The notes under the pieces: model-generated
The model's database searches: none
Told to the model about the DNA's origin: nothing
What the model saw: the letters and a program-made list of their open reading frames with translations, nothing else
Source: Actinocrinis sp.
GTDB taxonomy: Bacteria > Actinomycetota > Actinomycetes > Streptomycetales > Catenulisporaceae
Direction: 5' to 3'
DNA: 24,000 nt
NCBI GenBank assembly: GCA_035943635.1
Contig: DASZBX010000088.1
Coordinates: forward strand, 1 to 24,000
Position numbers and translations under genes: made by a program
Shown here: positions 1-22,044 of the stretch, piece by piece
How positions within the stretch are numbered: position 1 is the first letter of the stretch
How the letters are laid out: every line of letters begins with the position of its first letter

Positions 1-649
1 GGTAGGTCTGGGCGGCCTGGTTCTCCAGGTCCAGGGCCAGGTTCGCCACGCCGCCGACGGTGGTCACCGCGCTGAGGGCGGCCAGGGTCTGGGGCTGGTT
101 GGACAACGGGATGCCGGTGATCGTGGGCACGTTGGCCGAGGTGAGCACCGCGTTCCACGCCTTCGCGTGGTCGGCGTGCTGGCTCTTGGCGGTGGTGGCG
201 AAGGTCGCGACGGCCGGGGGCACGGCGCCGAGCTTGCCGGCGGTCGCGGCGGTCAGGGCCGCGCCGTAGGCGGCCACGGCCTGGTTCTCCAGCGCGGTGG
301 CCAGCGCGACGACCTTGAGGTCACCGGTGTACTGGCTGGTGCCCGAACCCGAGGCCATCGCGGACGGGCTGCCGGCCCCGCCGGTCCCCGCGGCCTGCGG
401 GGACGAGCTGGAGCTGCTGCACGCGGCCAGGGCCAGAGTGGCCCCGACCCCGCCGAGCCCGACCAGGAAGCCGCGGCGGCCGACCCGGCGTTCCGGGGTG
501 GCCTGGGTGTCGGCCAGTTCCTCGGCGAACAAAGCGGCCTGCTTGCGCATCACCGGGATGCTCTCGCGGTGCGCCTCGTCCAGGTCCTTGGTCATCGAAG
601 CCAGCTGGGCCTCGCTGATCTGCAGCTGCCACTGCGGCGTCCCGGTCAT
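1..649 (-). CDS. Ferritin-like domain protein with Tat-type lipoprotein signal (3' end cut by window edge)
   Basis: Absent from the ORF track because it runs off the window. My minus-strand translation from ATG 649..647 reads MTGTPQWQLQISEAQLASMTKDLDEAHRESIPVMRKQAALFAEELADTQATPERRVGRRGFLVGLGGVGATLALAACSSS..., then ...ALATALENQAVAAYGAAL...SQHADHAKAWN...LALDLENQAAQTY. It has a twin-arginine motif, a hydrophobic stretch and a lipobox (LAAC). It is a paralogue of 646..1452. Its ATG overlaps the upstream stop (ATGA at 646..649). Confidence 0.7.
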   Translation of the reverse strand, partial: MTGTPQWQLQISEAQLASMTKDLDEAHRESIPVMRKQAALFAEELADTQATPERRVGRRGFLVGLGGVGATLALAACSSSSSSPQAAGTGGAGSPSAMASGSGTSQYTGDLKVVALATALENQAVAAYGAALTAATAGKLGAVPPAVATFATTAKSQHADHAKAWNAVLTSANVPTITGIPLSNQPQTLAALSAVTTVGGVANLALDLENQAAQTY

Positions 650-1452
650 GAGACCGCTCCTTCGCTGACCGGCGACGCGCTGGTCGTCGGGTAGAACGAC
701 GTGGGGAACCCGACACTGCCCGCCGCGGCCGGCAGGCTGGCAGGCATGGTCGGGATCGCGATCAGGTCCGCGTCCCCGGCCGCCAGCAGGGCCTGCACGG
801 CCAGCAGCACCGACCGGTGCTGGGCCTCGACCGGCGCCACGCTGCCGAACAGCGTCCGCAGCGAGGCGTCACTGGCCAGCGAGACGTACTTGGTGTAGGT
901 CTGCGCCGCGACGTCTTCGAGCGTGATCGCGAGGGTCACGACGTCCGCCGGGGACTTGATCGTCGGCAGCGCGGTCTTGACCACCGCGGCGTACTTCGGG
1001 TCCGCCCCGGTCTGCTCCTTGCCGCCGGCCGCGGTGATCGCCGCGTTGAACGCCTGGGCGTGCGCGGTGTGCTGGGCGGTGGTCTTGGTGATGAACGCGG
1101 CCACGGTCGCGTTGCCGGACTTGATGAAGTCCAGGCCCGCGGCGGTCGTGTACACCGACACCGCCAGGTTCTCGATCGACGCCGCGGTCTGCAGCGCCAT
1201 GATGTCCCCGCTGGTCGCGGTCGCGGGCGCACTCGCCGCCGCCGCGGCCCGGCCTGCGCCGAGCAGCATCGCGCCGCCGGCGATCCCGGCCAACCAGCCG
1301 CCGCGCGAACGCCGCGCGCCGGCGGTCTCCTGCTGCTGCTGCGTGTACTCGTCCAGCGCCTGCCGAGTGATCCGTACCGCGTCGCTGTTCAAATCCTGCG
1401 ACTGGACGGTCAACTCCGACAGAAGCCGGGTGTCGAGACTCTCGTCACCCAT
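646..1452 (-). CDS. Ferritin-like domain protein with twin-arginine signal
   Basis: 268-aa ORF. GGAGG lies 6 nt upstream of ATG 1452. RRSRGGWLAGIAGGAMLLGAG...AAAAASA looks like a Tat signal. The ferritin-like helices (LQTAASIENLAVSVYT, TAQHTAHAQAFNAAI, ITLEDVAAQTYTKYV, VAPVEAQHRSVL) match the pattern of the downstream paralogue. Confidence 0.75.
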   Translation of the reverse strand: MGDESLDTRLLSELTVQSQDLNSDAVRITRQALDEYTQQQQETAGARRSRGGWLAGIAGGAMLLGAGRAAAAASAPATATSGDIMALQTAASIENLAVSVYTTAAGLDFIKSGNATVAAFITKTTAQHTAHAQAFNAAITAAGGKEQTGADPKYAAVVKTALPTIKSPADVVTLAITLEDVAAQTYTKYVSLASDASLRTLFGSVAPVEAQHRSVLLAVQALLAAGDADLIAIPTMPASLPAAAGSVGFPTSFYPTTSASPVSEGAVS

Positions 1453-1705: not shown

Positions 1706-2029
1706 TCAGGTCACGTCGTCGTCATAGGTGAGACGCGTGGCGCGCAGGTCCTCTTTGAGTTCGGCGCCGAGCGAGCGCAGGTCCTCGGTCTCGCCCAGCA
1801 GGTTCTTGCGCACGAAGGTCTTCGGGTTCAGATCGTGCAGGTCCAGTCCGTCGAACTCCGGGCCGAGTTCGCGGCGCAGCCCTTCGCGGGTGCTGTCGCT
1901 GAAGGCCCGGACCTGCTGGATGAAACGGGCCGCGCGGGCCGCCGTCTGCGGGAGCTTGTCCGGGCCGAACAGGACGACCCCGAGCCCGAGCAGCACCACG
2001 ATCTCGGGCAGGGACAGGTCGAAGAACAC
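1706..2029 (-). CDS. tatB: Twin-arginine translocase subunit TatB
   Basis: 107 aa with a GTG start and GGAG 8 nt upstream. N-terminal TM helix plus hinge motif (VVLLGLGVVLFGPDKLP). The amphipathic helix and ELGPEFDGL...KTFVRKNLL resemble actinobacterial TatB. Confidence 0.8.
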   Translation of the reverse strand: MFFDLSLPEIVVLLGLGVVLFGPDKLPQTAARAARFIQQVRAFSDSTREGLRRELGPEFDGLDLHDLNPKTFVRKNLLGETEDLRSLGAELKEDLRATRLTYDDDVT

Positions 2030-2107
2030 GGTGACGGCTCCGGTCGGTGATCGAGAGGGGTTCGGGCGGGCCCGGCGGCGTGGCCGGGTGCGCCCTGGAA
2101 CGCGGGT

Positions 2108-2308
2108 TTAGACGACCGTGTCCCGCACCGCAGTGACCGGCTCGGCTTCGGCCTCGGCGCCGGTCTTGGCGGCGCCCAGCTCCGAGCGGAAGATCCGCAG
2201 CGACTGGCCGACCGAGCGGGCCGAGTCGGGCAGGCGCTTGGCGCCGAACAGCAGCATCGCGATCGCACCGATGACGACCAGGTGCCAGGGCTCAAATGCA
2301 CGCAACAT
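2108..2308 (-). CDS. tatA: Twin-arginine translocase subunit TatA
   Basis: 66 aa. [37 protein letters not shown] is the canonical TatA/E TM-hinge-amphipathic helix signature. Confidence 0.85.
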
Positions 2309-2527
2309 GATCCGATTCCGTTCTGTCTGAGGGCTGCCGCCGCCCAGTCGGGAGGTGGACGGTCGCGAACGAGTCGGGGCCGGAAGGTGTTGTGCGCCCC
2401 GCTGTACTGGACCATTCGCAGCAGTCGGGGCCCCGGATTGGTGAGCCGCGTAAATTCACCCTTTCGAGTCGGCCGCGCCTGCTCGCCACGGGCGGCGGGT
2501 CCCGGCGGACAGGACAGGACCCGGTGT

Positions 2528-2560
2528 CGGAACGTTCCGCGGGTCGCGCGGAGCGTTCCG
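2528..2560. promoter_or_regulatory. Two tandem 12-nt palindromes (CGGAACGTTCCG / CGGAGCGTTCCG), 21 nt apart; candidate operator or stem-loop upstream of tatA
   Basis: CGGAACGTTCCG at 2528..2539 is a perfect palindrome. A one-mismatch copy sits at 2549..2560. Together they can also fold as a stem of about 13 bp. Location is 220-250 nt upstream of the tatA start. Confidence 0.25.
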
Positions 2561-2580
2561 GCACCGGGCCGGTGGGGACT

Positions 2581-2678
2581 GGCCGCGCCCACTGCTAGGG
2601 CCTGTTCGGAGTTCAGATCAAGGCGAAACGGCTGATCTTGATCTGAACTCCGAACAGGCCCTAGCAGTGGGCGCGGCC
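2581..2678. repeat. Perfect 42-bp inverted repeat with 14-nt spacer; probable terminator hairpin
   Basis: Left arm 2581..2622 (ggccgcgcccactgctagggcctgttcggagttcagatcaag) is the exact reverse complement of right arm 2637..2678. The right arm contains the last codons (GRAHC-stop) of CDS 2661..2864. Confidence 0.9.
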
Positions 2679-3445: not shown

Positions 3446-4291
3446 TCACCCGGTCCGCGGCACGTCCAGCAGACCCGGGTCGATCGTCGCCCGGGCGGTC
3501 ACCGACGCCGCCGCGGAGTCGACGATCAGGGCGGCGTCCTGCTCCCGGCCCTTCGGGATCTCGATCGCCGCGCTGTCCGGGCCGTCCCGGTGCGCCATCA
3601 GCCAGTCGTACAGCAGCCAGTCGACCGCGCAGGCGACGGCGAGCGGGTCGGCGTCGGCGGACCCGGCCGAGGTGATCACCGTGCGCAGTGCCTCGCGGTG
3701 CTCTGCCAGCGCGGCGTCCTTGTTGACGCCCGAGCTGTCGAACAGCAGCATCGCGAGCGTGGCCGGGAGCCGCAGGCCAGCCTCGGTGCGCACGATCCAC
3801 CGGCCGCCGCACCACGGCCGCCGCGGGTCGACCCGCTGCATCTGGCCGAAGCCGCCGACCACGCCGAGGGCCGGCGCGTCGAGTTCGCCGTCGAACGGGG
3901 CCGGGCCGAGCAGCCCGAGCGGCAGCCGGGCCCGGATCGCGAACAGCGCCGCGGTGCCGACGATCTGCCCGGCCCGCATGTCCGGCGCCGACCCGAGCAG
4001 CACCGACGCGGCGTGGTACTCGTGGCAGAGCCGGTCCAGCGCGCGGTGCAGCTCGCGCAGACCCTCGCGCTCGGCCGGGCCCGTGGGGCCGCGCCCGCCG
4101 CCGAGCAGCTCACCGAATTGCCCGGCCGCACTGACCAGCGCGTCGTCCAGCGCCTCGAGGTGGGTCGCGGCCAGCCGGTCGGGCTCCTCGTCCCGGCGGA
4201 CCAGGTCCGGCAGGCCGGTCGGGGCGCCGGCGGCGGTGAGCCAGTGGAAGCCGATCTGGCCGTCGGCCTGGGCTATCCGCGGCCGGCTCAC
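3446..4291 (-). CDS. Hypothetical protein, last large gene of the hydrogenase operon
   Basis: Consistently high-GC3 frame. GTG 4291..4289 forms a GTGA overlap with the upstream stop (4288..4290), the coupling pattern seen across the operon. ATG 4348 is an alternative start. I recognise no motif. Confidence 0.6.
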   Translation of the reverse strand: MSRPRIAQADGQIGFHWLTAAGAPTGLPDLVRRDEEPDRLAATHLEALDDALVSAAGQFGELLGGGRGPTGPAEREGLRELHRALDRLCHEYHAASVLLGSAPDMRAGQIVGTAALFAIRARLPLGLLGPAPFDGELDAPALGVVGGFGQMQRVDPRRPWCGGRWIVRTEAGLRLPATLAMLLFDSSGVNKDAALAEHREALRTVITSAGSADADPLAVACAVDWLLYDWLMAHRDGPDSAAIEIPKGREQDAALIVDSAAASVTARATIDPGLLDVPRTG

Positions 4292-5268
4292 CAGGTCCAG
4301 CCCGCTTCCGCCGCACGGTCCGGTCCCGGCCGGCCGGGCGCCGGCCACGGCCGGTCGGCCGGGCGGGCCGACTGCCGGGCCGAGACCCGCGAGCCCATCC
4401 GCGCGGCCGCCAGCCGCAGGTTGGTCGCGTCCAGCTGGCGCAGCGTGCTGGCTTCGAGGGTCTCGGCCTGGTCCGGGCGCAGCCGGTCCGAGAGCCAGTC
4501 CCAGTGCAGGGCGACCTGGTCGCCGGGCGCGACGTCCGGCAGGAAGCTCAGGCCGTCGACCGAGACCCGGACCCGCTCGGGCACCGGATCGCCGAGCCGC
4601 AGCGCGAATCCGTCCCAGGTCAGGCGGCGCGAGGTCAGCTCGACCTGGTCCCCGTCCCGGGCCACCACGGTGCCCCAGCGGATCCGGCAGTTGTCGAGCA
4701 CCCGCAGCGGCTCGTTGACCGGCTCGTCACCGCGCGCGGCAGCGCCCGGGCCGGCGACGCCGTGCGCGGCGAGCAGGCGCGACCACGGGTAGACGCCGAA
4801 CACGTGGAAACAGTGGTTGCCCGCGGCCTCGGCGACCAGCTCCGAGTTCAGATGCGACCAGTAACTGCTCGCCTGCGGCCCGATCAGCGCGAGCAGGTGG
4901 GCGCCGAAGTCGCGCGGGCTGATCTCGGCGCCGACCCCGCCGCCGAGCCAGTAGGCCTCGACGATCCGCCGGTCCAGCGGGTCCGCGATCCCGGTGAGTT
5001 TGGACAGGACCTGGAGGTAGGGCCAGGCGCCGGAGAACCGGCGGGCCACCGCGCGCACGTCGTCGGCCGAGCCGAGCTGCGCGGAGCCGGCCGCGGCCAG
5101 CGCGCCGGTCTCGGCCGGGCCGCAGAACCCGAGCTTGTTCGGCGCGTAGGCGTAGCGGGCGAACATCCACGCGCCGGAGACATCGCCGGAGGTGCCGCCG
5201 GTGCAGTCGCCGATGGTGGCCCCGGCCGGTTGCGCGGGCGTATCCGAACCCTGGGTCGGCGTGCTCAT
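4288..5268 (-). CDS. Conserved-looking hypothetical protein coupled to hypD (YAPNKLGFCGP motif; HypC-like C-terminal segment)
   Basis: ATG 5268..5266 overlaps the hypD stop (ATGA), giving 326 aa. The N-terminal half carries YAYAPNKLGFCGPAE. The C-terminal CRIRWGTVVARDGDQVEL...VAPGDQVALHWDWL echoes the HypC pattern. The part of the track ORF upstream of 5268 lies inside hypD in another frame. Confidence 0.65.
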   Translation of the reverse strand: MSTPTQGSDTPAQPAGATIGDCTGGTSGDVSGAWMFARYAYAPNKLGFCGPAETGALAAAGSAQLGSADDVRAVARRFSGAWPYLQVLSKLTGIADPLDRRIVEAYWLGGGVGAEISPRDFGAHLLALIGPQASSYWSHLNSELVAEAAGNHCFHVFGVYPWSRLLAAHGVAGPGAAARGDEPVNEPLRVLDNCRIRWGTVVARDGDQVELTSRRLTWDGFALRLGDPVPERVRVSVDGLSFLPDVAPGDQVALHWDWLSDRLRPDQAETLEASTLRQLDATNLRLAAARMGSRVSARQSARPADRPWPAPGRPGPDRAAEAGWTW

Positions 5269-6401
5269 CGCGGCTCCGCGGACTGTCCGACCAGCCGGGC
5301 CGCGTCGCGGTGCATCCGGCCGAAGTTGTAGTACGCGGCGCACGCGCCCTCGGCCGACACCATGCACGTGCCGATCGGCGTCTCCGGGGTGCACGCGGTG
5401 CCGAACACCTTGCACTCCCACGGTTTCAGCACGCCCTTGAGCACCTCACCGCACTGACACGCCTTCGGGTCGGCCACCCGCAGGCCGGGCAGGTCGAAGA
5501 GGCGTTCGGCGTCGAAGGCGGCGAACTCCTCCCGCAGCCGCAGCGCGCTCTGCGAGATGAATCCGAGGCCGCGCCACTCGAAGTGCGGGCGCAGCTCGAA
5601 CACCTGGGCCAGCAGGGCGAGCGCGGCCGGGTTGCCCTCCTCGCGCACCACCCTCGAGTATTGATTCTCCACTTCGCAGCGGCCCTCGCGGAGCTGGCGC
5701 AGCAGCATCGCCACCGACGCCAGGATGTCCAGGGGTTCGAACCCTGCGACCACGAGCGGCTTGCCGTACACCTCGGGCACGAACCGGTACGGCCGGTTGC
5801 CGACCACCGTGGAAACGTGGCCGGGCCCGAGGAATCCGGACAACCGCAGGTCGGGCGAGTCCAGGATCGCCTTGAGCGGCGGAACGATCGTGACGTGGTT
5901 GCAGAACACGCTGAAGTTCGACAGTCCGAGCTCGCGGGCGCGCACGAGCGTGACCGCGGTGGACGGCGCGGTGGTCTCAAAGCCGAGGGCGAAGAACACC
6001 ACCCGCCGGTCCGGGTTCTGCGCGGCCAGCCGCAGCGCGTCCAGGGGCGAGTAGAGGAAGCGCACGTCCGCGCCGCGGGCCTTGGCCTCCAGCAGGCTGC
6101 CGCGGCTGCCGGGCACCCGCATCATGTCGCCGAAGCAGGTGAAGATCACGCCGGGCTGCTCGGCCAGCCAGATCGCGTCGTCGACCCGGCCCATCGGGAT
6201 GACGCAGACCGGGCAGCCGGGGCCGTGCACCAGTTCCACGTTCTCCGGCAGCAGGTGTTCGAGCCCGTGCCGGTAGATGGTGTGGGTGTGGCCGCCGCAG
6301 ACCTCCATGAACTTGTGGTGCCCGGTGCCGGCCGTGTCCCTGATCGCCGCGAGCAGAAGCCGGGCCGCGGCCGGGTCGCGGAACTCGTCCACGAATCGCA
6401 T
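5265..6401 (-). CDS. hypD: [NiFe]-hydrogenase maturation protein HypD
   Basis: 378 aa. Motifs: FMEVCGGHTH, GPGCPVCV, FFALGFETTAP, GFLGPGHVS and the C-terminal CxxC...C...C Fe-S motif (ACQCGEVL...WECKVFGTACTPETPIGTCMVSAEGACAAYY). GGGGAGGG RBS upstream. Confidence 0.95.
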   Translation of the reverse strand: MRFVDEFRDPAAARLLLAAIRDTAGTGHHKFMEVCGGHTHTIYRHGLEHLLPENVELVHGPGCPVCVIPMGRVDDAIWLAEQPGVIFTCFGDMMRVPGSRGSLLEAKARGADVRFLYSPLDALRLAAQNPDRRVVFFALGFETTAPSTAVTLVRARELGLSNFSVFCNHVTIVPPLKAILDSPDLRLSGFLGPGHVSTVVGNRPYRFVPEVYGKPLVVAGFEPLDILASVAMLLRQLREGRCEVENQYSRVVREEGNPAALALLAQVFELRPHFEWRGLGFISQSALRLREEFAAFDAERLFDLPGLRVADPKACQCGEVLKGVLKPWECKVFGTACTPETPIGTCMVSAEGACAAYYNFGRMHRDAARLVGQSAEPR

Positions 6402-6435
6402 GAACCCTCCCCATCAGTGTGTACGAGCCCTGCGA

Positions 6436-6708
6436 TCACAGGACCGAGGAGGTGTCGAAGGCCTCGATCTCGGACCGGTACGCCTCCCCCATCTTCTGCA
6501 CCGCGGCCAGGGTCAGCATCGCCTCGTCCTCGTCGATCCGGGCCATCGCGAACCCGACGTGCACCAGCACCCAGTCCTGCGGCCGGACCTGTTCTCGTTC
6601 CAGCAGCCGGATGCTGATCGTGCGCTGCACCCCGCCGACGTCGACCTTGGCCAGACAGTTCGCGGCGTCCACGATCTCGACGATCTGCCCCGGAATCCCC
6701 AGGCACAT
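6436..6708 (-). CDS. hypC: Hydrogenase assembly chaperone HypC/HupF family (copy 2)
   Basis: 90 aa. N-terminal MCLGIPGQIVEI and ...DWVLVHVGFAMARIDEDEA. GAGGAGAGGGA RBS upstream. Confidence 0.9.
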   Translation of the reverse strand: MCLGIPGQIVEIVDAANCLAKVDVGGVQRTISIRLLEREQVRPQDWVLVHVGFAMARIDEDEAMLTLAAVQKMGEAYRSEIEAFDTSSVL

Positions 6709-6737
6709 GTCCCTCTCCTCTTCTTCACGGTGACGGC

Positions 6738-6756
6738 GGCGCCCGGGCCGGGCGCC
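6738..6756 (-). other. Intra-operon GC hairpin (8-bp stem, 3-nt loop) abutting the hypE stop
   Basis: GGCGCCCG (6738..6745) pairs with CGGGCGCC (6749..6756). It lies in the 48-nt hypE-hypC2 gap. Confidence 0.4.
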
Positions 6757-7896
6757 TCAGCAGATCCGCGGCAGCGGGTCGCCGACCAGCAGGTCCACGA
6801 TCCGGGTGCCGCCGAACAGGGTGCGCAGCACCACGGTCCCGGCCGGGTCGGCGGCGATCTCGCCGACCACGGCGGCCTGCGCGCCGAGCGGGTGCCCGCG
6901 CAGCGCGGCCAGCCCGGCCTCGGTCTCGCCGGCGGCGAGCACGGCCAGGAACTTGCCCTCGTTGGCCACGTACAGCGGGTCGATGCCGAGCAGTTCGCAG
7001 GCCCCGTTGACCGCCGGGCGGACCGGCAGCCGCCACTCGTCCAGGACCACGCACAGGCCGGCGGCCCGGGCCAGTTCGTTGCAGACCGTGCCGACGCCGC
7101 CGCGGGTCGGGTCGCGCAGCCAGCGGGTCGAGGGGGCCGCGGCGAGCAGGACCTCGGCCAGGTCGCCGAGCGGGGCCGTGTCCGAGCGGATGTCGGCCTC
7201 GATCGCGAGGTCGCCGCGGGCCAGCATCACGGCCATCCCGTGGTCGCCCATCGTCCCGGTCAGCACCAGGCGGTCGCCCGGGCGCACCGAGGCGGCCGAG
7301 AGCCGGCGCCCGTCCGGGATCACGCCCACGCCGGCGGTCGTGATGAACAGTCCGTCGGCGGCGCCGGTCGGTACGACCTTGGTGTCGCCGGTGACGATCT
7401 GCACCCCGGCGGCCTCGGCGGCCTCGGCCATGTCGGCCACGATCGCACGCAGTCCGCTGATCGGGAAGCCTTCTTCGAGCACGAACGCGGCCGACAGCCA
7501 GGCCGGGCGGGCGCCGGACACGGCCAGGTCGTTGACCGTGCCGTGCACCGCGAGGTGGCCGATCGAGCCGCCGGGGAAGCGCAGCGGCTGGACCACGAAC
7601 GCGTCGGTGCTGAAGGCGAGCCGGTCGCCGCCGGGCAGGGCCAGGACGGCGCCGTCGCCGAGCGCCTCGAGGTGTTCGTTGCGGAAGGCCTCGACGAAGA
7701 CCGAGTCGACCAGCGCCGCGGACGACTTCCCGCCGGCGCCGTGGGCCAGGGTGACGATCTCGTCCAGCAGCCGCGGCCGGCGGCGGCGGAAGGCCTCGAT
7801 CCGTTCGATCACCTCGCCCTCGGCGAAGGACGGGCCGGGGCCGGACCGACTGTGCTCGGCCGGGTCGTGCGCGGCGAGGCCGGAGTAAGAGGTCAT
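6757..7896 (-). CDS. hypE: Hydrogenase maturation protein HypE (carbamoyl dehydratase)
   Basis: ATG 7896..7894 overlaps the upstream stop (ATGA), giving 379 aa. AIR-synthase-like motifs (LAHGAGGK, TDAFVV, GTVNDLAVSGA, TGDTKVV) and the diagnostic C-terminal PRIC. Confidence 0.93.
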   Translation of the reverse strand: MTSYSGLAAHDPAEHSRSGPGPSFAEGEVIERIEAFRRRRPRLLDEIVTLAHGAGGKSSAALVDSVFVEAFRNEHLEALGDGAVLALPGGDRLAFSTDAFVVQPLRFPGGSIGHLAVHGTVNDLAVSGARPAWLSAAFVLEEGFPISGLRAIVADMAEAAEAAGVQIVTGDTKVVPTGAADGLFITTAGVGVIPDGRRLSAASVRPGDRLVLTGTMGDHGMAVMLARGDLAIEADIRSDTAPLGDLAEVLLAAAPSTRWLRDPTRGGVGTVCNELARAAGLCVVLDEWRLPVRPAVNGACELLGIDPLYVANEGKFLAVLAAGETEAGLAALRGHPLGAQAAVVGEIAADPAGTVVLRTLFGGTRIVDLLVGDPLPRIC

Positions 7897-8552
7897 CGTT
7901 GCTCCGCCGGCTGAGCCAATTGTTCGTGGACTGATTCCCAGAGCCGGTATCCGAGCAGGGCTTGGGCCTCCTGGATCCGGTGCACGCTCTGCGAGCGCAC
8001 GACGAGGCACACGTCGACGTCCGGGCTCCCGGCGAACTCGCCGCCGTCGTAGCCCGCGAACCCGACCGTGTACAGGCCGCGCGCCCGCGCCTCCCGGAAC
8101 GCGGCGGCCAGGTCGCGCGAACTGCCGCTGGTGGACAGGGCGATCGCGACGTCCGTGGGCCGGGCCCGGGCGATCAGCTGCCGGGCGAAGACCAGGTCGA
8201 AGCCGACGTCGTTGCCCAGCGCGGTCAGGATCGCCTGGTCGGCGGCCAGGGACCAGGCCGGCAGCGGGCGGGCCGGGGATCCGGGCGGCGGGACGGCGAA
8301 CAGCCCGGCCAGGGTGGCGGCGTCGGTGCAGCTGCCACCGTTGCCGAAAGTGAAGATCCGTCCGCCCGCGGACAGCCGGCGGGCGATCTCGGCGGCGGCC
8401 GTCCGCAGCTGCGGCGCGCACGCTTCGAGGGTGCTGCGGCGTAGCTGCGCGCTCTCCCGGGACTTGGCCCGGGCCGAGGCGGCCAGGTCGGTCAGCAGGG
8501 AGCCCTGGTCTCGTTCCGTGGCGTCCAGGAACGGGTAGAGGAAGCCGGTCAC
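7893..8552 (-). CDS. SIS-domain protein, GmhA (phosphoheptose isomerase)-like
   Basis: 219 aa. GTG start forms a GTGA overlap with the upstream stop. SIS hallmarks: RIFTFGNGGSCTDA, LTALGNDVGFDLVFARQ, DVAIALSTSGSSRD, VHRIQEAQALLGY. Confidence 0.8.
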   Translation of the reverse strand: MTGFLYPFLDATERDQGSLLTDLAASARAKSRESAQLRRSTLEACAPQLRTAAAEIARRLSAGGRIFTFGNGGSCTDAATLAGLFAVPPPGSPARPLPAWSLAADQAILTALGNDVGFDLVFARQLIARARPTDVAIALSTSGSSRDLAAAFREARARGLYTVGFAGYDGGEFAGSPDVDVCLVVRSQSVHRIQEAQALLGYRLWESVHEQLAQPAEQR

Positions 8553-9370
8553 GGCCGGCCCTCCTCGGCCAGGCGGCTGATCGCCATCCCGGCGTGCACG
8601 AGCACCAGGTCGCCTCCGCGGACCGGTTCGACCAGCGCCGTGGAGACGCGTTCTTCGTAGCCTGCGACGAGGACGACGGCCTCGCCGCCGGGACCCACCG
8701 TGACCACCTCGCCGAGCCTGCCCTCGTCGCTACAGGTGACGCAGACCTCCTCGTCGCAGTCGGCCGCGACGGCCTGGCCCAGCAGTCCCGGGTGTTCGAA
8801 GCAGACGTGGGTCAGTTCCCAGAGCAGGTGGTAGAGCAGCACGAACCCGCCGGCGGCCGGCCGGCCCGGGTCCGGATCGTCAAGCCAGAGCACGTGATCG
8901 GCCGCGCCCGCCGGGGGCCGGGGGCCGTTGCCGATCCACAGGGCGCTCGCGCCCCAGGCCGGGGCGCGGCGGATCACCGCGCCCGCCTGCGGGTCGTCGG
9001 CCGCCGCGACGGCGATGATCACGTCGCCGGGCCGGACCGAGAGCCGGGCCGCGCCGACCACGGCCGGGCCGGTCAGCGCGACGGCCGGCAGGGCCTTCGC
9101 GCCGACCACGACCGGATGGACGAACTCGACCGCGATGTGCTGGGCGTGCGGCTCCCAGGCCGGGGCCAGGCACCAGAGCGTGGCCCCGGCGGCGAACCGG
9201 CGCGCGAGACTCAGCGCGGCCGTGGCCAGATCGGCGGCCAGATCCTCGCCGATCTCGCCTTCGGGCGCGGTGGCCGCCGGGTCTTGCGGCTCCGGAGCCG
9301 CTTCGGGCTCGTTCCCGCCGAGGGCATCAGTATTCGTATCAACCATGACGACACCTATCGCGGATATCAT
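8549..9370 (-). CDS. Degenerate SIS-like domain fused to a C-terminal HypC-like domain
   Basis: ATG 9370..9368 overlaps the hypC1 stop (ATGA), giving 273 aa; ATG 9346 is an alternative start. The middle region (AQHIAVEFVHPVVVGAKALPAVALTG...GDVIIAVAAAD...LYHLLWELTHV) follows SIS topology but lacks the GNGGS and STSG motifs. The C-terminus CVTCSDEGRLGEVVTV...GGDLVLVHAGMAISRL parallels HypC. Confidence 0.6.
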   Translation of the reverse strand: MISAIGVVMVDTNTDALGGNEPEAAPEPQDPAATAPEGEIGEDLAADLATAALSLARRFAAGATLWCLAPAWEPHAQHIAVEFVHPVVVGAKALPAVALTGPAVVGAARLSVRPGDVIIAVAAADDPQAGAVIRRAPAWGASALWIGNGPRPPAGAADHVLWLDDPDPGRPAAGGFVLLYHLLWELTHVCFEHPGLLGQAVAADCDEEVCVTCSDEGRLGEVVTVGPGGEAVVLVAGYEERVSTALVEPVRGGDLVLVHAGMAISRLAEEGRP

Positions 9371-9729
9371 CGGGCGCCGCCGCCTCGCTGAGCCGGGACG
9401 GCCCCGACCGCGGGCCCGCTTGCAGACGTCGCAGGGCTCAAATTTGCCGCACGGTCGGCCGCCGCCGGAATCTCCGCGGCCTGGCCGAAGACCCCGTACT
9501 CCGCCATCGTCGCAATGGTCTCCAACGCCGACGCCTCCTCGATCCTGGTCAGCGCGAAGCCCGCGTGCACGATCGTGTAGTCGCCCACCTGCAGCTCCGG
9601 CAGGTAGGCCAGGCAGATCCGCCGGGACTCCACGGCCGTTCCGGCCTGCCGGAACTCGACCCGGGCCATCCGCGCGCCGCTCTCCTCGTCCCAGACCTCG
9701 ACGATCTTGCCGGGTATGCCCAGACACAT
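9367..9729 (-). CDS. hypC: Hydrogenase assembly chaperone HypC/HupF family (copy 1, with about 40-aa C-terminal tail)
   Basis: 120 aa. MCLGIPGKIVEV...VGDYTIVHAGFALTRIEE. The start lies 1 nt after the hypF stop. Confidence 0.9.
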   Translation of the reverse strand: MCLGIPGKIVEVWDEESGARMARVEFRQAGTAVESRRICLAYLPELQVGDYTIVHAGFALTRIEEASALETIATMAEYGVFGQAAEIPAAADRAANLSPATSASGPAVGAVPAQRGGGAR

Positions 9730-9730
9730 G

Positions 9731-12142
9731 TCAGCTCTCCTCCTCGATCGCCCGCAGCGCCGACACCGCGGCCTGGCCGAGCGCCAGGCCGCCGTCGTTC
9801 GGCGGGACCAGGCGGTGCGTGAGCACCTCGAAGCCCTCGGCCTCCAGCTGTTCCCGGCACAGGCCCAGCAGCAGCACGTTCTGGAACACCCCGCCGGTCA
9901 GGCCGGCCAGCCGCACGCCGTGCTCGCGCCCGACCTGGACCGCCACCATCGCGACCGCGTCCGCGAGAGCGGTGTGGAAGGCCTCTGCGAGCAGCGCCGC
10001 CGGGACCGCGTCGCGCAGCCCTGCGACGAGATCCGCCAGCATCGGCGCGGGATCCAGCACGCCGTCCGCGCCGACCTTGAAGTGGAACTTCGGCGCCGTC
10101 ATGTTCAGGTCCTCGGCCGAGCGCGCCAGCACCTCCAGCTCGATCGCGGCCTGTCCCTCGTAGGCGATCCGGTGCCGCACGCCGAGCAGCGAGGCCACCG
10201 CGTCGAACAGGCGGCCCACGCTCGTGCACGGCACGCACCCGAACCCGCTGTCCAACTGCGATCTCAGCACTCGGAGTTCCTGGACGCTCGCCGCCGCCAC
10301 CGGGGGCAGGTCCCCGGACCAGTCGATCCCGGCCGCGCGCAGGTGCGACAGGGCCATCCGCCACGGGTTGCGCACGGCGAGGTCCCCGCCGGCCAGCGGC
10401 ACCGGCGCCAGATGCCCGGCCCGGATGAACCGCTGGCTGGCCCGGCCCAGCAGCAGCACCTCGCCGCCCCAGACCGCGCCGTCGGTGCCGTATCCGGTGC
10501 CGTCGAAGGCGAACCCGACCACCGGGCGGCCGAGCCGGCCGTGCTCGGCCAGCAGTGAGACGACGTGCGCGTGGTGGTGCTGGACCAGGTCCAGCGGGCG
10601 GTCCCCGGCGGCGCGCTCGGCCCAGCCGCGGGTGAGGTAGCCCGGGTGCAGGTCGGCGGCCAGCCGTTGCGGACCGTCGCTCTGCAGCCCGGTGAGCTGC
10701 TCGACCGAGCGTTCGAACGCGCTGAGCGTGGCGGCCGCGCCCATGTCGCCGATGTGCCCCGAGGTGTACGCCAAGCGGCCCTCGGTCAGGCAGAAGGTGT
10801 TCTTCAGCTCCCCGCCGACCGCCAGGACCGAGGGCGCGGCCCGGCCGAGGTCGACCGGAAGCGGCGCGTACCCGCGGGAGCGGCGGATCGGCAGCACGGT
10901 CCCGTCCACCACCCGGACCACCGAGTCGTCGCAGGGCACGTGGATAGGCCGGTCGTGGGTGAGCACCGCGTCGGCCAGGTCGGGCAGCCACGCGACCGCG
11001 TCCTCGTCGCGGAAGCAGATCGGTTCGTCCTCGATGTTGGCACTGGTGAGCACGATCCCGTGCGGCGGGTACACGTCCGCCCCGGGCACCGGCTCGAACA
11101 CCAGGTGGTGCAGCGGCGAGTAGGGCAGCATCAGGCCGATCCACGGGCTGCGCGAGCCCTCCATCCCGGCCACCCCGGCCGCCACCGGCGCGCCCAGCCG
11201 CCTTGGCAGCAACAGGATCGGGCGGGCCGGGGAGCTGAGCACAGCCGCGTCCGCGCGGTCGAACCGGGCCAGCCAGCGGGCCACGGTCAGGTCCGCGACC
11301 ATCACGGCGAACGGCTTGGCCGCGCGGGCCTTGCGGGCGCGCAGCCGGGCCACCGCCTCCTCGTCGTTGAGCGCGCAGGCCAGGTGGTAGCCGCCGATCC
11401 CCTTGATCGCGACGATCTGCCCGGCCGCCAAGGCGCGCTGGGTGGCCAGGATCGCGGCGTCCGACTGGCTCAGCCGGCCGAAGTCGCAGGCCGGTCCGTC
11501 GCCGTCCGGCTCGGGCCCGGCCACCTGCTGCCCGGCCGGTTTCGGCTCGGTCCAACTCTCGAACCGCAGGGTCGGGCCGCAGTCCGGGCAGGCGATCGGC
11601 TGGGCGTGGAACCGGCGGTTCGCCGGATCCTGATATTCGGCTTCGCAGCGCCCGCACATCGGGAACCCGGCCATGGTCGTGGCCGGCCGGTCGTACGGCA
11701 GGGATCTGATGATGCTGAACCGGGGCCCGCAGTTCGTGCAGGTGACGAACGGGTGCCGGTAGCGCCGGTCGGCCTTGTTGAACAGGTCGCGGCGGCAGTC
11801 GGCGCACATCGCGATGTCCGGCGGGATCGGCGAGCGGGCCCCGTCGGTCTCCTCGCTGGGCACGATCCGGAAGTCCCGGTCCGCGGTGGCCGGGATCACC
11901 ACGGTCCGCACCTGGTCCACGTCGGCCAGCGGCGGGGCCTGCTCGACCAGCCGGGCGGCGAACTCCTCGACCAGGTACCCGGGGCCCTGGACCTCCAGGA
12001 ACACCGCCGAGGAGTCGTTGCCGACCAGGCCGACCAGGCCGAGTTCGGTGGCGATCCGGTAGACGTGCGGCCGGAATCCGACCCCCTGCACCACGCCGGT
12101 CACCGTGAACCGGCGCCGCTCCACGTCGGCCAGCAATCCCAT
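9731..12142 (-). CDS. hypF: Carbamoyltransferase HypF
   Basis: Start chosen at ATG 12142..12140 (TGATG overlap with the NHL gene stop), giving 803 aa. Acylphosphatase domain ([16 protein letters not shown]), two Zn-finger repeats (CADCRRDL...CTNCGPRFS; CGRCEAEY...CPDCGP), YrdC-like ([11 protein letters not shown]) and a Kae1-like C-terminus. The track ORF upstream of 12142 is Arg/Pro-rich out-of-frame read-through of the NHL gene. Confidence 0.95.
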
Positions 12143-13341
12143 CAGTGCCGCCCCCAAATCAGGACTCGGTTGTTTCCGGAGTCGGCCACCGCGAGGCGGT
12201 CGCCGTGCATGCTGATCCCGTAGGGCCAGGACAGGGTGTCCCGCTGCACGCTGGACCAGCGGTTCTCCCCGTTCGCGGCGAAGGTCGGCTGGGCCAGCAC
12301 GTGGTCCGCGGCCTGGCCGTGCCCGGGCACCCGGTCCCACAGCAGGATCCGGTTGTCCGCGGTGTCGGCCACGGCCAGCCGGCCGCCTTCCAGCGCGACG
12401 GAGTAGGGGAAGCGCAGCCGGTCGCCGCTGTGCGGGCCGAACGGCCACTCGGCCGCGGTGTCGAAGTCCGGCTGGCCCAGCACCAGATCGGCCGGCCGGT
12501 CCCGGTCCGGGCGCGGGCGCCAGCCGAGCACCCGGTGGTTGCCGGCGTCGGCGACCAGCAGCAGGCCGTCCGTCCCGGCCACGCCGTGCGGCCAGCGGAA
12601 GCTGTCCGGGCCGACCCCGCGGTCCCGGTTCTCCCCGCGCCGGGTCGCCTCCGGCTGGCCGAGCACGACGTCGGCGGGGCGGTCCCGGTCCGGCAGGCCG
12701 CCGTCCCAGCCGAGCACGCGCCGGTTCCCGGTGTCCGCGACCCAGAACCACCCGTCGGCCACGGCGATCCCGAACGGCCAGTACAGCGATCCGGCGGTGC
12801 ACCGCACGCCGTCCTGCGCGCCGCCGCGGTTCGCGCCGACCGAGGCCGGGTCGGGCTGGCCGAGGATCAGGTCGGGGGCCTGGTCGCTGGCCCGCGAGAC
12901 CGTGTTCCAGATCAGGATGCGATGATGCCAGGCGTCCGCGACGGCCAGCCGTCCGTCGTGCACCAGCACGCCGGTGGGCAGGTTCATCCCGCGCTCCGGG
13001 CCGCGGCCGTCGGCCGCCCGGCCCTCGGTGGTGCCGTCCGGCTGGCCGAGCACGACGTCGGCCGGCTGCTCGTCCGCCGTCGGAACTCCGTGCCAGATCA
13101 GGACCCTGTGGTTGCCGGAATCGGCCACGACCAGGTGTTCGCGGTCCAGGAAGACCCCGCGCGGCGAGTACATCCAGGCCATGGTCGGGTTCGCCGCGGG
13201 CAGGGCGAGCCCGCCCGGCGCGGGCGCCCCGAGCCAGGTCTCTGCCGTCCATCCGCCGCTCAGGTCCGACAGCGCGGGCCCCGGGTTCGGCGTGTCCGCC
13301 GGTGGCCTCGGCCCGATGCTCACCCTCATCGTGTCGCTCAT
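12142..13341 (-). CDS. NHL-repeat protein (six-bladed beta-propeller)
   Basis: ATG 13341..13339 overlaps the upstream stop (ATGA), giving 399 aa. Six repeats of the type [VA]ADxGNxR[VI]LxW...D.[VI]LGQP[DE] ([78 protein letters not shown]). Confidence 0.85.
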
Positions 13342-14312
13342 GTGCCCACCCGGATCCAGACGTCCCCGGCTTCGACCCGCAGCGGCAGCTGTTCCAGGTG
13401 CGCTCCGGGGGCGCTCAGGCACTCGCCGGACAGCGCGTCGTAGCAGAATCCGTGCCAGGGGCAGGTCAACGTGCCGTTGGTTGCGTCGAGCAGCGCGTTG
13501 TCCAGCGGCATCCCCTCGTGCGCGCACGCGTTTCCGTACGCCGTGAGCCGGTTGCCGATGTTCACGACGATGACCCCCGCGGCCAGCGCCGATCTCGATC
13601 TCGTCCCCGGTGCCGCGCCCAGCGACAGTGTGCTGATCTTCCCCTCGGCCAACTCCCCGACCGCCGCGGCCTTCACCCATCCGTCGGCCGCGAGACCGTC
13701 CGGGTCCGCCGCCCCGGGCCCGATCCGCAGTGCGGACAAGGGAATCAGGGCCGGTGACGGTTCGCCGGGCAGCACTTCGACCGTCGTGATCCCCGGAACG
13801 CCGCCGACCAGCGCCTCTTCGACCAGGTGGCGAAGCGTCACCGAGGACATGGAGCACCCGTTGCAGGCGCCCTCCAGCCGGACATACGCGACCGGGCCCT
13901 CGATCCGGACCAGGGCGACGTCGCCGCCGTGCGACTGCAGCTGCGGCCGGACCTGAGTCAGAACCCTGGTCGCGAGCGTGACCGGATCCGGGCGGACGAT
14001 CCCGTGCAGCGACAACAGCAGATGCACGGTCGGATCATCGACGAGCTCGTACAACGCCGGACGGGTCGCCTCCTCGGACCGCAGCCGCCGGACGATCGTC
14101 ACCAACCCGGCCCGGTGCACGGCCTCCACGGCCGCCTTCAGCTCCTCGGCGACCGCCCGGGCCGGGCCGTCCAGCGCGGCCAGCGCCTTGACCGCGTCGT
14201 CCACCCGCATCGCCAGCCGCTCGAACGACGGTTCCGGCTCGGCCGGCTCCGGCTCGGGCCGCGCCGCGGGGGGGCGGTCCCGCGCCCGGCCGTCCCGGAT
14301 ATCAGCAGTCAT
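13338..14312 (-). CDS. hucE: NifU-like + Rieske [2Fe-2S] fusion protein (HucE/HhyE-like putative hydrogenase electron-transfer/assembly protein)
   Basis: ATG 14312..14310 lies 2 nt after the upstream stop, giving 324 aa. Nfu-type domain ([28 protein letters not shown]). C-terminal Rieske motif CAHEGMPL-x15-CPWHGFCYD. Confidence 0.8.
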
Positions 14313-14314
14313 GC

Positions 14315-15709
14315 TCACTCCGCATCCTGGTCCTGGTTCCTGACCAGCACCTGCTGGCGGGCGATCTCGTCGAGCAGGCCGCGCACCATCCGGACCGAGT
14401 CGCCGTCGGAGAACTCCTCGAACAGGAACCGGGCCTCGTGCAGCTTGGCCCTCGCGTGGGCGAACTGGCCCAGGTGCGCCAGCACGTTGCCCTGGTTGGC
14501 CAGCACCCGCGCGCGGCCGATCGGATCGGAGTGCCGCCCGCGGACCTGGAGCACGGCCTCGTACAGCTCCAGCGCTTCGACCAGATTGTCGGCCTGGTGC
14601 CGGGACGGCGTGTAGACAAGGGAATTGGCGAGATTCAGCTGAGTGCTCGCCCACCGCTCCGGATGGGTCTGCGGGGTGTACACCTTCAGCGCGTGACGCA
14701 GCGACTGCACCGCGACGCCGAGCCGGAGCTGATCGGAAGCCTGCGTCATCGGCATGGTCAGGTAGGCAGCGGCGAGGTTGGCGTGGGCGGCGGCCCACAG
14801 TTCCGGCGCCTGCTCGGCCGTGATCAGCTGGAGCACCGAGTGGTAGTGCGGCACCGCGAGCGCCAGCTGCTGCGGCTGCTGTGCGGACAGTTCGTGCAAC
14901 GCCCCGGCCAGGCCCAGGTGCAGCTCGGCCCGGCTGACCCGCAGGTCCTCGGCCCCGCTGAGCGCCAGCAGGGCCTGCTCGTAGAGCACCGCAGGGCCCG
15001 GATTCGCCGGGCCGCTGCTCTCGCCCAGGCCGAACACCTCCTGGCTGATCGACGCGGCCGCCCCCAGCATCAGTCCGGCCAGCGGCGGCGCCACCGGGCG
15101 CGCGGTCCGGGCCGCCTGGTGCAGCAGCCGCAGCGCCTCGGTCGGCTCGCCGGCGGCCAGCTCGTGCGTGGCCTGCGCGGACAACAGCAGCGCGGCGATC
15201 TCCCCCTCGGCCGAGCCCGGCTCGGGCGGCGTCACGGTCCGGCCGAGCACGAAGGACACCAGGTCGACCAAGGGCCCGAACTCGCCCAGATCCGCGCGCA
15301 GCTGCTGTAGTTCTCCTTCACCATCCTCAGAATCCTCAGCTCCGGCGCCGCCGAGGCCGTCCGGGTCCAGCACGAACCGGTTGTACCGGCTGACCGGATC
15401 GGACCCGGCCGCGGCCAACGCTGCCAGCGCGCCCCCCCGGTCCCCGGCCAACGCCAACTCGTGCGCCCGCAGCCGTTCCGGCCACGGATCCGGCGCCCGG
15501 CCCGCCAACAACGACACCCGCGCGGCCTCGGTGTCCGCACCGCCCGGGATCAGCAGGTACCCGGCCGGCAGCGGGAACGTGCCCAAAGGCTGCGGCCGCA
15601 CCGGCGCCGCCCACGCCGACGGGCCCGCCTGCGCAGTCCGCTCCGGCTGCGAGCTCGACGGCGACCCGTCGATCATGATCGTCACCGGACCGGCCAGCAG
15701 ATCAGACAT
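14315..15709 (-). CDS. TPR-like helical-repeat protein
   Basis: 464 aa. The C-terminal two thirds are Ala/Leu-rich helical-pair repeats (e.g. ELWAAAHANLAAAYL, RWASTQLNLANSLVY, GRARVLANQGNVLAHLGQFAHARAKLHEA). ATG 15709 overlaps the upstream gene by 8 nt. Confidence 0.6.
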   Translation of the reverse strand: MSDLLAGPVTIMIDGSPSSSQPERTAQAGPSAWAAPVRPQPLGTFPLPAGYLLIPGGADTEAARVSLLAGRAPDPWPERLRAHELALAGDRGGALAALAAAGSDPVSRYNRFVLDPDGLGGAGAEDSEDGEGELQQLRADLGEFGPLVDLVSFVLGRTVTPPEPGSAEGEIAALLLSAQATHELAAGEPTEALRLLHQAARTARPVAPPLAGLMLGAAASISQEVFGLGESSGPANPGPAVLYEQALLALSGAEDLRVSRAELHLGLAGALHELSAQQPQQLALAVPHYHSVLQLITAEQAPELWAAAHANLAAAYLTMPMTQASDQLRLGVAVQSLRHALKVYTPQTHPERWASTQLNLANSLVYTPSRHQADNLVEALELYEAVLQVRGRHSDPIGRARVLANQGNVLAHLGQFAHARAKLHEARFLFEEFSDGDSVRMVRGLLDEIARQQVLVRNQDQDAE

Positions 15710-18998: not shown

Positions 18999-19040
18999 GG
19001 AACTGATCCTCTCAGGACGGCCGCGATCCCGCCGGGCGAT

Positions 19041-20012
19041 TCAGACAACGAACATGTCTTCTTTGGACCACTGCGGCGCGGCGATCCGCGCCGCGGCCGC
19101 GTGCGCCATGTAGGTCAGGTGGTCGTTGCCCTCCGGCACCTCCTTCGGGATCATGCCGCTGACCTTCTGGGTCTTGAACACCGTGCCCGGGGTCAGGTCG
19201 AAGAACGGGAACTCCGGTTCGGTGCAGCCCAGGCACGGCATCCCGGCCCGGGTCTTGGAGGACTGCCGGTTCCACAGGATCCGGTTGCACGGCGAGTGCG
19301 TCATCGGCCCCCGGCAGCCGAACTCGTAGAACAGGCACCCGGTCCGCGTCCCCTCGCCGAACGACACCGTCGACTGCTTGTACTCGAAGAACTGCACCCG
19401 CGTGCAGCCGGTCTGGGTGAACGACTTGAAGAACGTCTCCGGCCGGTGCAGCTCGTCCAGGGTGATGTCCGCCGCCCGCCCGGTGGCCAGCGCCACCAGG
19501 ATCTGGGTGATCCAGTCCGGATGCGCCGGACAGCCCGGGATGTTGATCACCGGCAGCCCGGACCGGGACCGGAAGTCCGGCCCGAGATACCCGCCCTTCT
19601 CCCGCTTGTGGAACTGCAGCCCGGTCGACCCGGACGGATTCGGCGCCGTGGCCGGAATCCCGCCCCAGCACGCGCAGTCCCCGATCGCCACCACGATCTG
19701 CGCCTGCGCGGCCAGGTCGGTCACCCAGTCCTTCATCGGCCGGTCGGCGAACATGTCCATCCGCCCGCTCCCGTTCGGCCCCTCGATCACGGTCCCCTCG
19801 AACACGAAGATGTCCAGCGGCCGGGCCCCCCGGGCACAGTCCTGGAACAGTTTCTGCGCGTTCTTGCCCAGTTCCAGGCCCAAAGAAGGGTGCCAGAGCA
19901 GGTCGAGACCGAAGTCGACTATCAGGTCGACCACGTTCGGCTCGTCCGCGTTCAGGAACGACATCGTGTTCCCACTGCAAGCACCGCCCTGGAACCACAG
20001 GACAGACGCCAT
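19041..20012 (-). CDS. hucS: [NiFe]-hydrogenase small subunit without Tat signal, group 2a-like
   Basis: Start chosen at ATG 20012..20010, preceded by GAGAGGAG, giving 323 aa that begin directly at MASVLWFQGGACSGN. The ORF-track N-terminal extension is not a convincing Tat signal and ignores that RBS. Fe-S ligand motifs: GACSGN, GDCACWGG, GCPAHPDW, TQTGC, GCLFYEFGCRGP, SPCN, PCLGC. Confidence 0.93.
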   Translation of the reverse strand: MASVLWFQGGACSGNTMSFLNADEPNVVDLIVDFGLDLLWHPSLGLELGKNAQKLFQDCARGARPLDIFVFEGTVIEGPNGSGRMDMFADRPMKDWVTDLAAQAQIVVAIGDCACWGGIPATAPNPSGSTGLQFHKREKGGYLGPDFRSRSGLPVINIPGCPAHPDWITQILVALATGRAADITLDELHRPETFFKSFTQTGCTRVQFFEYKQSTVSFGEGTRTGCLFYEFGCRGPMTHSPCNRILWNRQSSKTRAGMPCLGCTEPEFPFFDLTPGTVFKTQKVSGMIPKEVPEGNDHLTYMAHAAAARIAAPQWSKEDMFVV

Positions 20013-20129
20013 GGAATACTCCTCTCGATTGCCCGCCGACCAGGTCGGTGTGAATGGGGGAAGAACCACGCCCGCACGCCTCCGACCAGCAAGGAGGCAG
20101 CGGGCGAACAAACCGGCGACCGGAACCGG

Positions 20130-22004: not shown

Positions 22005-22044
22005 TTCAGTGAACCGATGATCCGGAGGGCAGGAGCCCGCGACA

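Follow-up and report, generated by a model that had tools for sequence, protein, structure and literature searches.

Two SIS-domain proteins of a hydrogenase maturation operon retain complementary parts of a GmhA-type site

Locus and gene pair

The subject of this analysis is a 24,000-nucleotide (nt) stretch of DNA from Actinocrinis sp. (contig DASZBX010000088.1), referred to below as the window, to which all coordinates apply unless another locus is named. It carries a [NiFe] hydrogenase locus in which two adjoining genes of the hyp operon encode the proteins called here A and B. Protein A is a GmhA-like SIS protein, and protein B combines a GmhA-like SIS domain with a HypC-like domain. Between them, the two proteins retain the conserved ligand set of GmhA in complementary parts, which makes it likely that they form a heteromer with one composite site.

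Read along the minus strand, the genes are those for the small subunit, the large subunit, a HycI-like protease, two uncharacterised proteins, a NifU–Rieske protein and an NHL-repeat protein, followed by hypF, hypC1, the genes for proteins B and A, hypE, hypC2, hypD and a DUF6390 gene (Table 1). The junctions hypC1/B (ATGA), B/A (GTGA) and A/hypE (ATGA) each overlap by 4 nt, which is the usual mark of translational coupling. A preliminary description of this DNA had placed two coupled genes between hypC1 and hypE, and its coordinates are confirmed; both genes are on the minus strand.

In the following, conservation counts out of 120 refer to the 120 nearest 90%-identity clusters of each family. 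Counts for 50%-identity representatives come from sets that include many frameshifted fragments.

Table 1. Genes, domains and motifs of the window.
Feature	Position	Strand	Evidence and remarks
[NiFe] hydrogenase small subunit	19041..20111	-	
[NiFe] hydrogenase large subunit, Huc type (group 2a)	17391..18998	-	PDB 7UUS/7UTD, E = 0, 1041 bits
hypF	9731..12142	-	Five HypF Pfam domains; start checked
hypC1, canonical, N-terminal MCLGIPG	9367..9729	-	Pfam HupF_HypC 1.1e-21
Protein B, 273 amino acids	8549..9370	-	GmhA-like SIS domain, CxxC linker, HypC-like OB domain
Protein B, SIS (GmhA-type) fold, residues 40-197	8780..9253	-	Without the two phosphate loops and a loop of ~16 residues
Protein B, HAQHIAVEFVH (H75, H78, E82, H85)	9116..9148	-	Equivalents of GmhA zinc ligands: H78 (H64), E82 (E68)
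Protein B, YHLLWELTHVCFEH, last SIS helix	8792..8833	-	H181 corresponds to GmhA zinc ligand H183; translation, hhalign, MAFFT
Protein B, CVTCSD	8726..8743	-	Internal CxxC[SA]D where HypC has N-terminal Met-Cys; translation
Protein B, HypC-like OB fold, residues 217-270	8561..8722	-	Pfam HupF_HypC, Foldseek
Protein A, 219 amino acids	7893..8552	-	GmhA-like SIS protein
Protein A, GNGGS, phosphate loop 1	8331..8345	-	Translation; kept in 120/120 clusters
Protein A, STSGSS, phosphate loop 2	8118..8135	-	Translation; STSG kept in 120/120 clusters
Protein A, HRIQEAQ	7962..7982	-	Q194 corresponds to GmhA zinc ligand Q175; translation, alignment; Q194 120/120
hypE	6757..7896	-	AIRS and AIRS_C domains; ATG overlaps protein A stop
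hypC2	6436..6708	-	Pfam HupF_HypC 7e-26; starts MCLGIPG
hypD	5265..6401	-	Pfam HypD 1.4e-154
DUF6390 gene	4288..5180	-	Start uncertain; Pfam DUF6390 1.5e-100
HypB-like gene	22017..23213		Divergent

Protein A

Protein A matches the Pfam families SIS_2 (8e-15) and SIS, both above their gathering scores. An NCBI entry derived from a metagenome-assembled genome of Actinocrinis sp. is 100% identical to it. Its best matches in the PDB are GmhA proteins, that of Burkholderia pseudomallei being found at 2e-28. The GNGGS and STSGSS motifs quoted in the preliminary description, like the CVTCSD motif of protein B, are present in the translations.

The zinc ligands of GmhA, H64, E68, Q175 and H183, are fully conserved among orthologues, and all of them matter for activity (PMC5705639). 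When protein A is aligned with GmhA from the PDB, the positions of H64, E68 and H183 are occupied by T80, L84 and Y202, so that the zinc-ligand row of protein A reads T, L, Q, Y and only one of the four ligands is present. The non-ligand residues T80 (119/120) and L84 (120/120) are as good as fixed among the nearest clusters, and the position equivalent to H183 varies between Y, H, F, E and S. With the GmhA equivalog models of NCBIfam, protein A reaches 98-107 bits, below the cut-offs of 209-276. Many of its homologues are named "D-sedoheptulose 7-phosphate isomerase" by JGI and NCBI despite the absence of three of the four invariant zinc ligands.

Protein B

The N-terminal domain of protein B has no match in a Pfam scan. 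The AlphaFold model of protein B has a mean predicted local distance difference test (pLDDT) score of 65 and a predicted template modelling (pTM) score of 0.50, with the lowest confidence near the metal motifs, and is adequate for recognising the fold and not for reading the site. The SIS-like topology attributed to this protein in the preliminary description is nevertheless recovered in three ways. In a Foldseek search of the model against the PDB, the top matches of the N-terminal domain are all GmhA, at 7e-6 (2i2w_A, template modelling (TM) score 0.6). A PDB search with the B-family profile retrieves GmhA at E = 0.0065, with "HAQHvAvEFV" placed over "DAQHIAGEFV" and an identical "LPAVALT". 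Comparison of the B family with the A family by hhalign gives E = 8.8e-4 at a probability of 23%.

The same alignments locate the ligands. The HAQHIAVEFVH motif of protein B lies over "DAQHIAGEFVS" of GmhA in the profile search, and each of its His and Glu residues is kept in 120/120 clusters. In the last SIS helix, "LLYHLLWELTH" of protein B is aligned by hhalign with "LLGYRLWESVH" of protein A, and H181 is likewise kept in 120/120 clusters. Among 50%-identity representatives, H78 is found in 109/123, E82 in 113/124 and H181 in 100/118 (85-91%). The zinc-ligand row of protein B therefore reads H, E, A, H, with three of the four GmhA ligands and Ala at the Gln position in 116/120 clusters. Where GmhA has its phosphate loops, protein B has "LAPAW" and "VAAAD", and the GmhA equivalog models of NCBIfam do not match it. 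More than 4450 homologues of protein B were found, typically of about 240 amino acids. The SIS domain is about 70% identical across genera, which at the sequence level amounts to strong constraint.

The first ~37 residues of protein B (9260..9370, minus strand) are rich in Pro, Glu and Ala, unconserved and modelled with low confidence. The true start may lie downstream, for example at Met9 (ATG at 9346), though the ATG at 9370 overlaps the hypC1 stop.

The C-terminal part of protein B is HypC-like and carries an internal Cys, as had been proposed. Residues 220-270 match Pfam HupF_HypC at 1.2e-10 (41.8 bits against a cut-off of 28.5), and HypC of Thermococcus kodakarensis (3vys_A/3vyt_A) superposes on the model of this domain with a root-mean-square deviation (rmsd) of 1.1-1.4 Å and a TM score of 0.9 (Foldseek; 0.91 for 3vyt_A). 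The match covers positions 7-56 of the 65 in the Pfam model, protein B ends 3 residues further on, and the C-terminal helix is absent, so the domain is the OB-fold core only. For the subfamily model TIGR00074, protein B scores 31.1 bits, below the cut-off of 48. An N-terminal Cys2 of the MC[LIV][GA][LIV]P type is missing, the Cys residues standing at positions 210 and 213 of 273. C210, C213 and D215 are kept in 120/120 clusters and in about 89% of the 50%-identity representatives, and the CxxC is the only Cys feature that survives in divergent relatives. A four-Cys metal cluster of C190, C205, C210 and C213 was considered as a general feature of protein B and dropped, since divergent members keep the CxxC only. 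H259, within LVLVHAGMAI, is kept in 120/120 clusters and in 79/83 representatives. This His, in the "LVHAG" motif, we take to be the counterpart of His51 of Escherichia coli HypC.

In the databases, protein A is named sedoheptulose-7-phosphate isomerase and protein B HypC/HupF chaperone (NCBI uses "HupF" for some homologues of B). Both proteins fall outside the defining tests of the families whose names they bear, and the pair is mis-annotated.

Division of the site residues between A and B

In GmhA, the active site is itself assembled from two subunits. The crystal structure of the Neisseria gonorrhoeae enzyme takes H61, E65 and H183 from one monomer and Q175 from its neighbour (PMC5387315). 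In a modelled complex of Mycobacterium tuberculosis GmhA, the phosphate loops and the Gln are on one monomer and the Glu is on the other (PMC7705670). GmhA is a half-of-sites enzyme whose paired sites are 15 Å apart, with one working at a time (PMC5705639).

Judged from the alignments, the partition between A and B follows this arrangement: protein B keeps the residues contributed by one monomer and protein A those contributed by the neighbour. Together they hold 4/4 GmhA zinc ligands, and neither chain alone has the full set. The preliminary description had seen here an intact protein A and a degenerate protein B, that is, an active/inactive pair. This view has to be given up, as protein A has lost three zinc ligands and protein B keeps exactly those three. 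Since the GmhA site is split across monomers and each protein lacks the share of the other, A and B appear to be complementary halves of one site. A heteromer with one composite metal and sugar-phosphate site is therefore a likely arrangement, and the two proteins probably function as an obligate heteromer. Beyond the GmhA set, protein B has the invariant His residues H75 and H85, and protein A has H191.

The comparison with GmhA (PDB 2X3Y, 2I22, 5I01) brings out likenesses and differences. The SIS fold is common to protein A and the N-terminal domain of protein B; protein A shares the phosphate loops and the Gln, and protein B the His/Glu/His triad. By analogy, the site of A·B would lie across a subunit interface, as it does in GmhA. 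GmhA differs in that each chain carries the full ligand set, and the A and B genes are found in hyp operons, not in heptose pathways.

Linkage of the two genes

The two genes keep company far beyond Actinocrinis. A scan with one genome per species found a B relative in at least 589 genomes, and 80 loci were taken for synteny. Protein A directly follows protein B in 79/80 of these, the sole exception stopping at a contig edge; the expectation of the preliminary description that the arrangement is kept in related loci is thereby confirmed. A candidate start of A overlaps the stop of B by 4 nt or 1 nt in 58/76 loci. In most of the 80 loci, the DUF6390 gene closes a conserved block, B-A-hypE-hypC-hypD-DUF6390.

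In some lineages, the two proteins are a single chain. Three fusions (P0247, P0273 and P0371) have the SIS and HypC-like domains of B followed by A, and the P0371 fusion occurs on several contigs, flanked by hypF and hypD in a 1h-type locus. Five proteins (P0298, P0313, P0348, P0361 and the protein encoded on Thermus thermophilus pTHTHE1601) join a B-type SIS domain to an A-type SIS domain without the HypC domain. In the alignment, these tandem SIS–SIS proteins divide the residues in the same way as A and B. Six other candidate fusions (P0354, P0359, P0291, P0335, P0304 and P0340) were dropped as frameshifted metagenome calls with Arg-rich out-of-frame stretches. Such calls in high-GC metagenome DNA would inflate counts of domain fusions if they were accepted uncritically.

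The natural fusion P0247 was modelled as a proxy for the A·B pair. Its AlphaFold model has a pLDDT of 87.3 and a pTM of 0.80, and the B-type SIS domain exceeds 90, against 26-50 for the same region in protein B alone, a gain that is supportive and not decisive. The A half of the model superposes on GmhA with a TM score of 0.8-0.9. The whole chain aligns with the tandem-SIS isomerase domain of GlmS, in which both SIS domains find a counterpart, though loosely (TMq about 0.5, rmsd about 6 Å, 8-10% identity).

Undivided and tandem relatives

A tblastn search of plasmids with protein B returned one mycobacterial plasmid only, and protein A as query gave proteobacterial, Thermus and Sulfobacillus loci. 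A single SIS gene of 229-230 codons is present in Cupriavidus necator H16 pHG1 (69693..70382, in a group 1h locus), Afipia carboxidovorans pHCG3 and Methylocystis parvus, where it lies between hypF (or hypF-hypC) and hypD. This undivided form holds all motifs of A and B: LYPFL, GNGGS, DAAHIAVEFLHPV/DAAHIAVEF[LV]HPV, STSG, HR[IV]QE and YHILWDLVH. It too stays under the GmhA equivalog cut-off, with 148-150 bits (148 for C. necator) against 209. As the undivided and the A-type forms all fall below the GmhA cut-offs, the hydrogenase-linked SIS proteins make up a separate clade alongside GmhA.

The tandem protein of T. thermophilus pTHTHE1601 is a 392-residue "SIS domain-containing protein" encoded between hypE and hypF. 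There (locus L083, 5452..6883) and on a Sulfobacillus acidophilus plasmid (locus L085, about 5430..6850), the tandem SIS–SIS gene is immediately followed by a gene for a small glutaredoxin-like (seleno)protein. The Sulfobacillus tandem region carries no annotation, and a frameshift is required to read through it.

Proteins A and B most likely descend from one hydrogenase-linked, GmhA-like SIS protein whose two copies have diverged. The simplest history would start from an ancestral homo-oligomer with complete sites, followed by duplication and complementary loss. The products of the duplication would be the tandem forms of Thermus and Sulfobacillus and the split forms of Actinomycetota, and the HypC-like domain would have been gained at the end of the B-type copy in the actinobacterial line. 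The A/B pair looks like the half-of-sites asymmetry of GmhA fixed permanently.

Hydrogenase context and earlier reports

The hydrogenase encoded in the window is of the Huc type. Its large subunit is closest in the PDB to that of Mycobacterium smegmatis Huc, and the group 1h enzyme of C. necator is a distant match. An assignment of the window to group 1h by analogy with M. smegmatis MSMEG_2702-2720 was ruled out on this ground. The A and B genes are embedded in the order hypF-hypC-B-A-hypE-hypC-hypD in both 2a-type and 1h-type loci, and the same SIS pair is present in about 50 mycobacterial loci whose 1h-like large subunit shows only about 24% identity. The SIS pair thus accompanies both the 2a and the 1h group, in line with the association that had been suggested for it.

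The presence of these genes in hydrogenase loci is already known from several papers, none of which offers an explanation for it. In Frankia, the synton hypF2-hypC2b-hypothetical-gmhA-hypE2-hypC2a-hypD2 has the gene order of the window (PMC11879354). The same paper calls the gmhA product heptose-1-phosphate adenylyltransferase, which is a different enzyme (PMC11879354). A "gmhA" has been noted in group 1h/2a hydrogenase loci of Acidobacteria and as MSMEG_2706 of M. smegmatis, and a paper on Mycobacterium indicus pranii labelled both genes of the pair phosphoheptose isomerases. In a proteomic study of Acidithiobacillus ferrooxidans, the GmhA of the hup locus was up alongside the Hyp maturation proteins, and a neighbourhood survey from 2025 names "SIS domain" as one of the neighbours of hydrogenases. 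No study on the function of either protein emerged from literature searches on MSMEG_2706/2707, on Huc with GmhA and on SIS with NiFe maturation. The canonical HypABCDEF scheme, as the preliminary description had pointed out, gives no role to such a SIS module, and a 2025 review of [NiFe] hydrogenase maturation does not mention it.

Proposed role

Genomic context very probably links the A/B pair to hydrogenase maturation, because the genes lie within the hyp operon and H259 and the CxxC are kept. The fuller proposal, which is favoured here with moderate confidence, is that A and B form an obligate heteromer with a composite site and assist, as an accessory factor, the maturation in air of the oxygen-insensitive hydrogenases of groups 1h (Hhy) and 2a (Huc). 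Huc and Hhy oxidise atmospheric H2 in air, and reviews state that extra, poorly defined maturation proteins are needed for this type of enzyme.

In this proposal, the A·B pair would restore one full GmhA-type site and leave the reciprocal site dead. The assembly would probably be A2B2, by analogy with GmhA tetramers, and the residues retained suggest that the composite site may bind a metal and a phosphorylated ligand. The HypC-like OB domain of B would sit on a flexible linker and keep the His that HypC requires for iron binding. This HypC-like arm could be where the module docks with either the Hyp machinery or the large subunit. The site would then pass something to the arm, or gate it, while HypD/HypE or the large subunit take part in assembling Fe(CN)2CO in air.

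Protein B shares with HypC/HybG the OB fold, the "LVHAG" His and a Cys where the barrel begins. It differs in that HypC has a processed N-terminal Cys2 and a C-terminal helix, whereas protein B has a CxxC after a SIS domain of about 200 residues. The second thiolate, three residues off, is a plausible stand-in in B for the free amino terminus. Since two canonical HypC genes stay in the operon, protein B would add to HypC and not replace it.

Several observations weigh against this proposal. The drift at the H183-equivalent position of protein A means that residues outside the presumed site drift too. The ties between the SIS domain of B and GmhA or protein A that are drawn from sequence alone are weak, as the profile and hhalign values above indicate. 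The higher confidence of the fusion model is confounded by the different target and by the greater diversity of its alignment. In the 2025 review, Cys2 at the N terminus of HypC is described as essential, pairing with Cys41 of HypD to hold Fe(CN)2CO, so that the domain of B, with its Cys inside the chain, may be unable to handle this group at all. According to the same review, C. necator has HypX, and it also carries the undivided SIS gene; the module is therefore not a simple HypX substitute. Finally, GmhA-like tetramers have a non-catalytic precedent, which is taken up below.

Alternative explanations

E. coli DiaA is a GmhA-like tetramer that acts purely as a protein scaffold. By analogy with this protein-binding platform, A and B could form a non-catalytic scaffold or chaperone, an oligomeric platform that presents the HypC-like arm to the large subunit and protects the latter from oxygen, with the His, Glu and Gln residues being structural. 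DiaA turns up as a neighbour of the pair in both structure and sequence comparisons, and the loss of the phosphate loops in protein B would suit such a role; a link to DnaA is not seen for A and B. A protective function of this kind is known from HupF, which is a paralogue of HypC, carries an extra domain and stabilises the large subunit when oxygen is present. Like protein B, HupF/HoxL combines a HypC-like domain with an extra domain in organisms that make aerobic hydrogenases. The extension of HupF, however, is a short C-terminal tail behind a HypC-type N terminus, whereas B is extended at its N terminus, by a SIS fold that probably depends on a second protein. HupF itself has the partner HupK/HoxV, and none of the open reading frames (ORFs) of the window that were scanned proved HupK-like. 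The scaffold explanation gives no reason for the exact complementary retention of the ligands across Actinomycetota, Thermus and metagenomic lineages, and it leaves the full site of the proteobacterial single-copy form unexplained. It is considered unlikely, although more probable than the explanations that follow.

Alternatively, the pair may be a metabolite sensor, whose site binds a sugar phosphate (e.g. sedoheptulose-7-P) without turnover and gates the HypC-like arm according to carbon status. The strict retention of both phosphate loops in protein A fits this idea, and so does a recent paper which reports that glycerol-mediated catabolite repression controls mycobacterial H2 consumption. 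A post-translational link is not known, however, and neither protein has a domain for DNA binding or signalling. For mere binding, moreover, neither the catalytic Glu nor the complete metal triad would be necessary, yet both are kept. A sensor is thus a decidedly improbable role.

Bolder than the proposed maturation factor, and scarcely probable, is an A·B enzyme that supplies a ligand or metal for Fe(CN)2CO in air and would represent a third route to CO in oxidisers of atmospheric H2 that lack HypX. As an example, a GmhA-type metal-enediolate site might free CO from an enediol derived from a phosphosugar, in the manner of acireductone dioxygenase, and the product would go to an iron held by the CxxC and the His of the HypC-like arm. 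The preliminary description had already noted the lack of HypX in connection with such a role, and no HypX-like ORF was found among the scanned ORFs of the window.

An ordinary heptose-pathway isomerase A that is in the operon by chance, next to a HypC paralogue B with a decayed extra domain, would agree with the JGI and NCBI names and the best PDB matches of A, and is nonetheless highly improbable in view of the three missing zinc ligands and sub-threshold equivalog scores of A, the synteny, gene overlaps and natural fusions of the pair, and the strong constraint on the SIS domain of B.

Neighbouring genes

The Huc-type subunits (17391..20111, minus strand) are accompanied in the window by the NifU–Rieske and NHL-repeat proteins (12142..14798, minus strand). 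The C-terminal ~100 residues of the DUF6390 protein ("DNCRIRWGTVV...GDQVALHWDW") give a weak HupF_HypC match (E = 0.25, 11.9 bits) and may be a further HypC-like OB domain with an internal Cys. Two ORFs 3' of the DUF6390 gene, 3446..4348 (300 amino acids) and 1828..2592 (254 amino acids), both on the minus strand, have no Pfam match. A small ORF at 1706..2029 (minus strand), which starts with "MFFDLSLPEIVVLLGLGVVLFGPDKLP", appears TatA/TatB-like by eye. It adjoins a gene for a protein with a ferritin-like/rubrerythrin domain (646..1452, minus strand; Pfam Ferritin_2 8e-15).

Implications

Huc and Hhy hydrogenases are under development as catalysts, and the module described here adjoins hypE, hypC and hypD in hundreds of species. 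For the heterologous production of Huc or Hhy, this argues for the co-expression of both genes. Undivided, tandem-fused and split forms coexist, which makes the family useful for studying how a pseudo-enzyme partner originates. The A/B pair offers a natural case in which a half-of-sites homo-oligomer has apparently been turned by duplication into an obligate hetero-oligomer.

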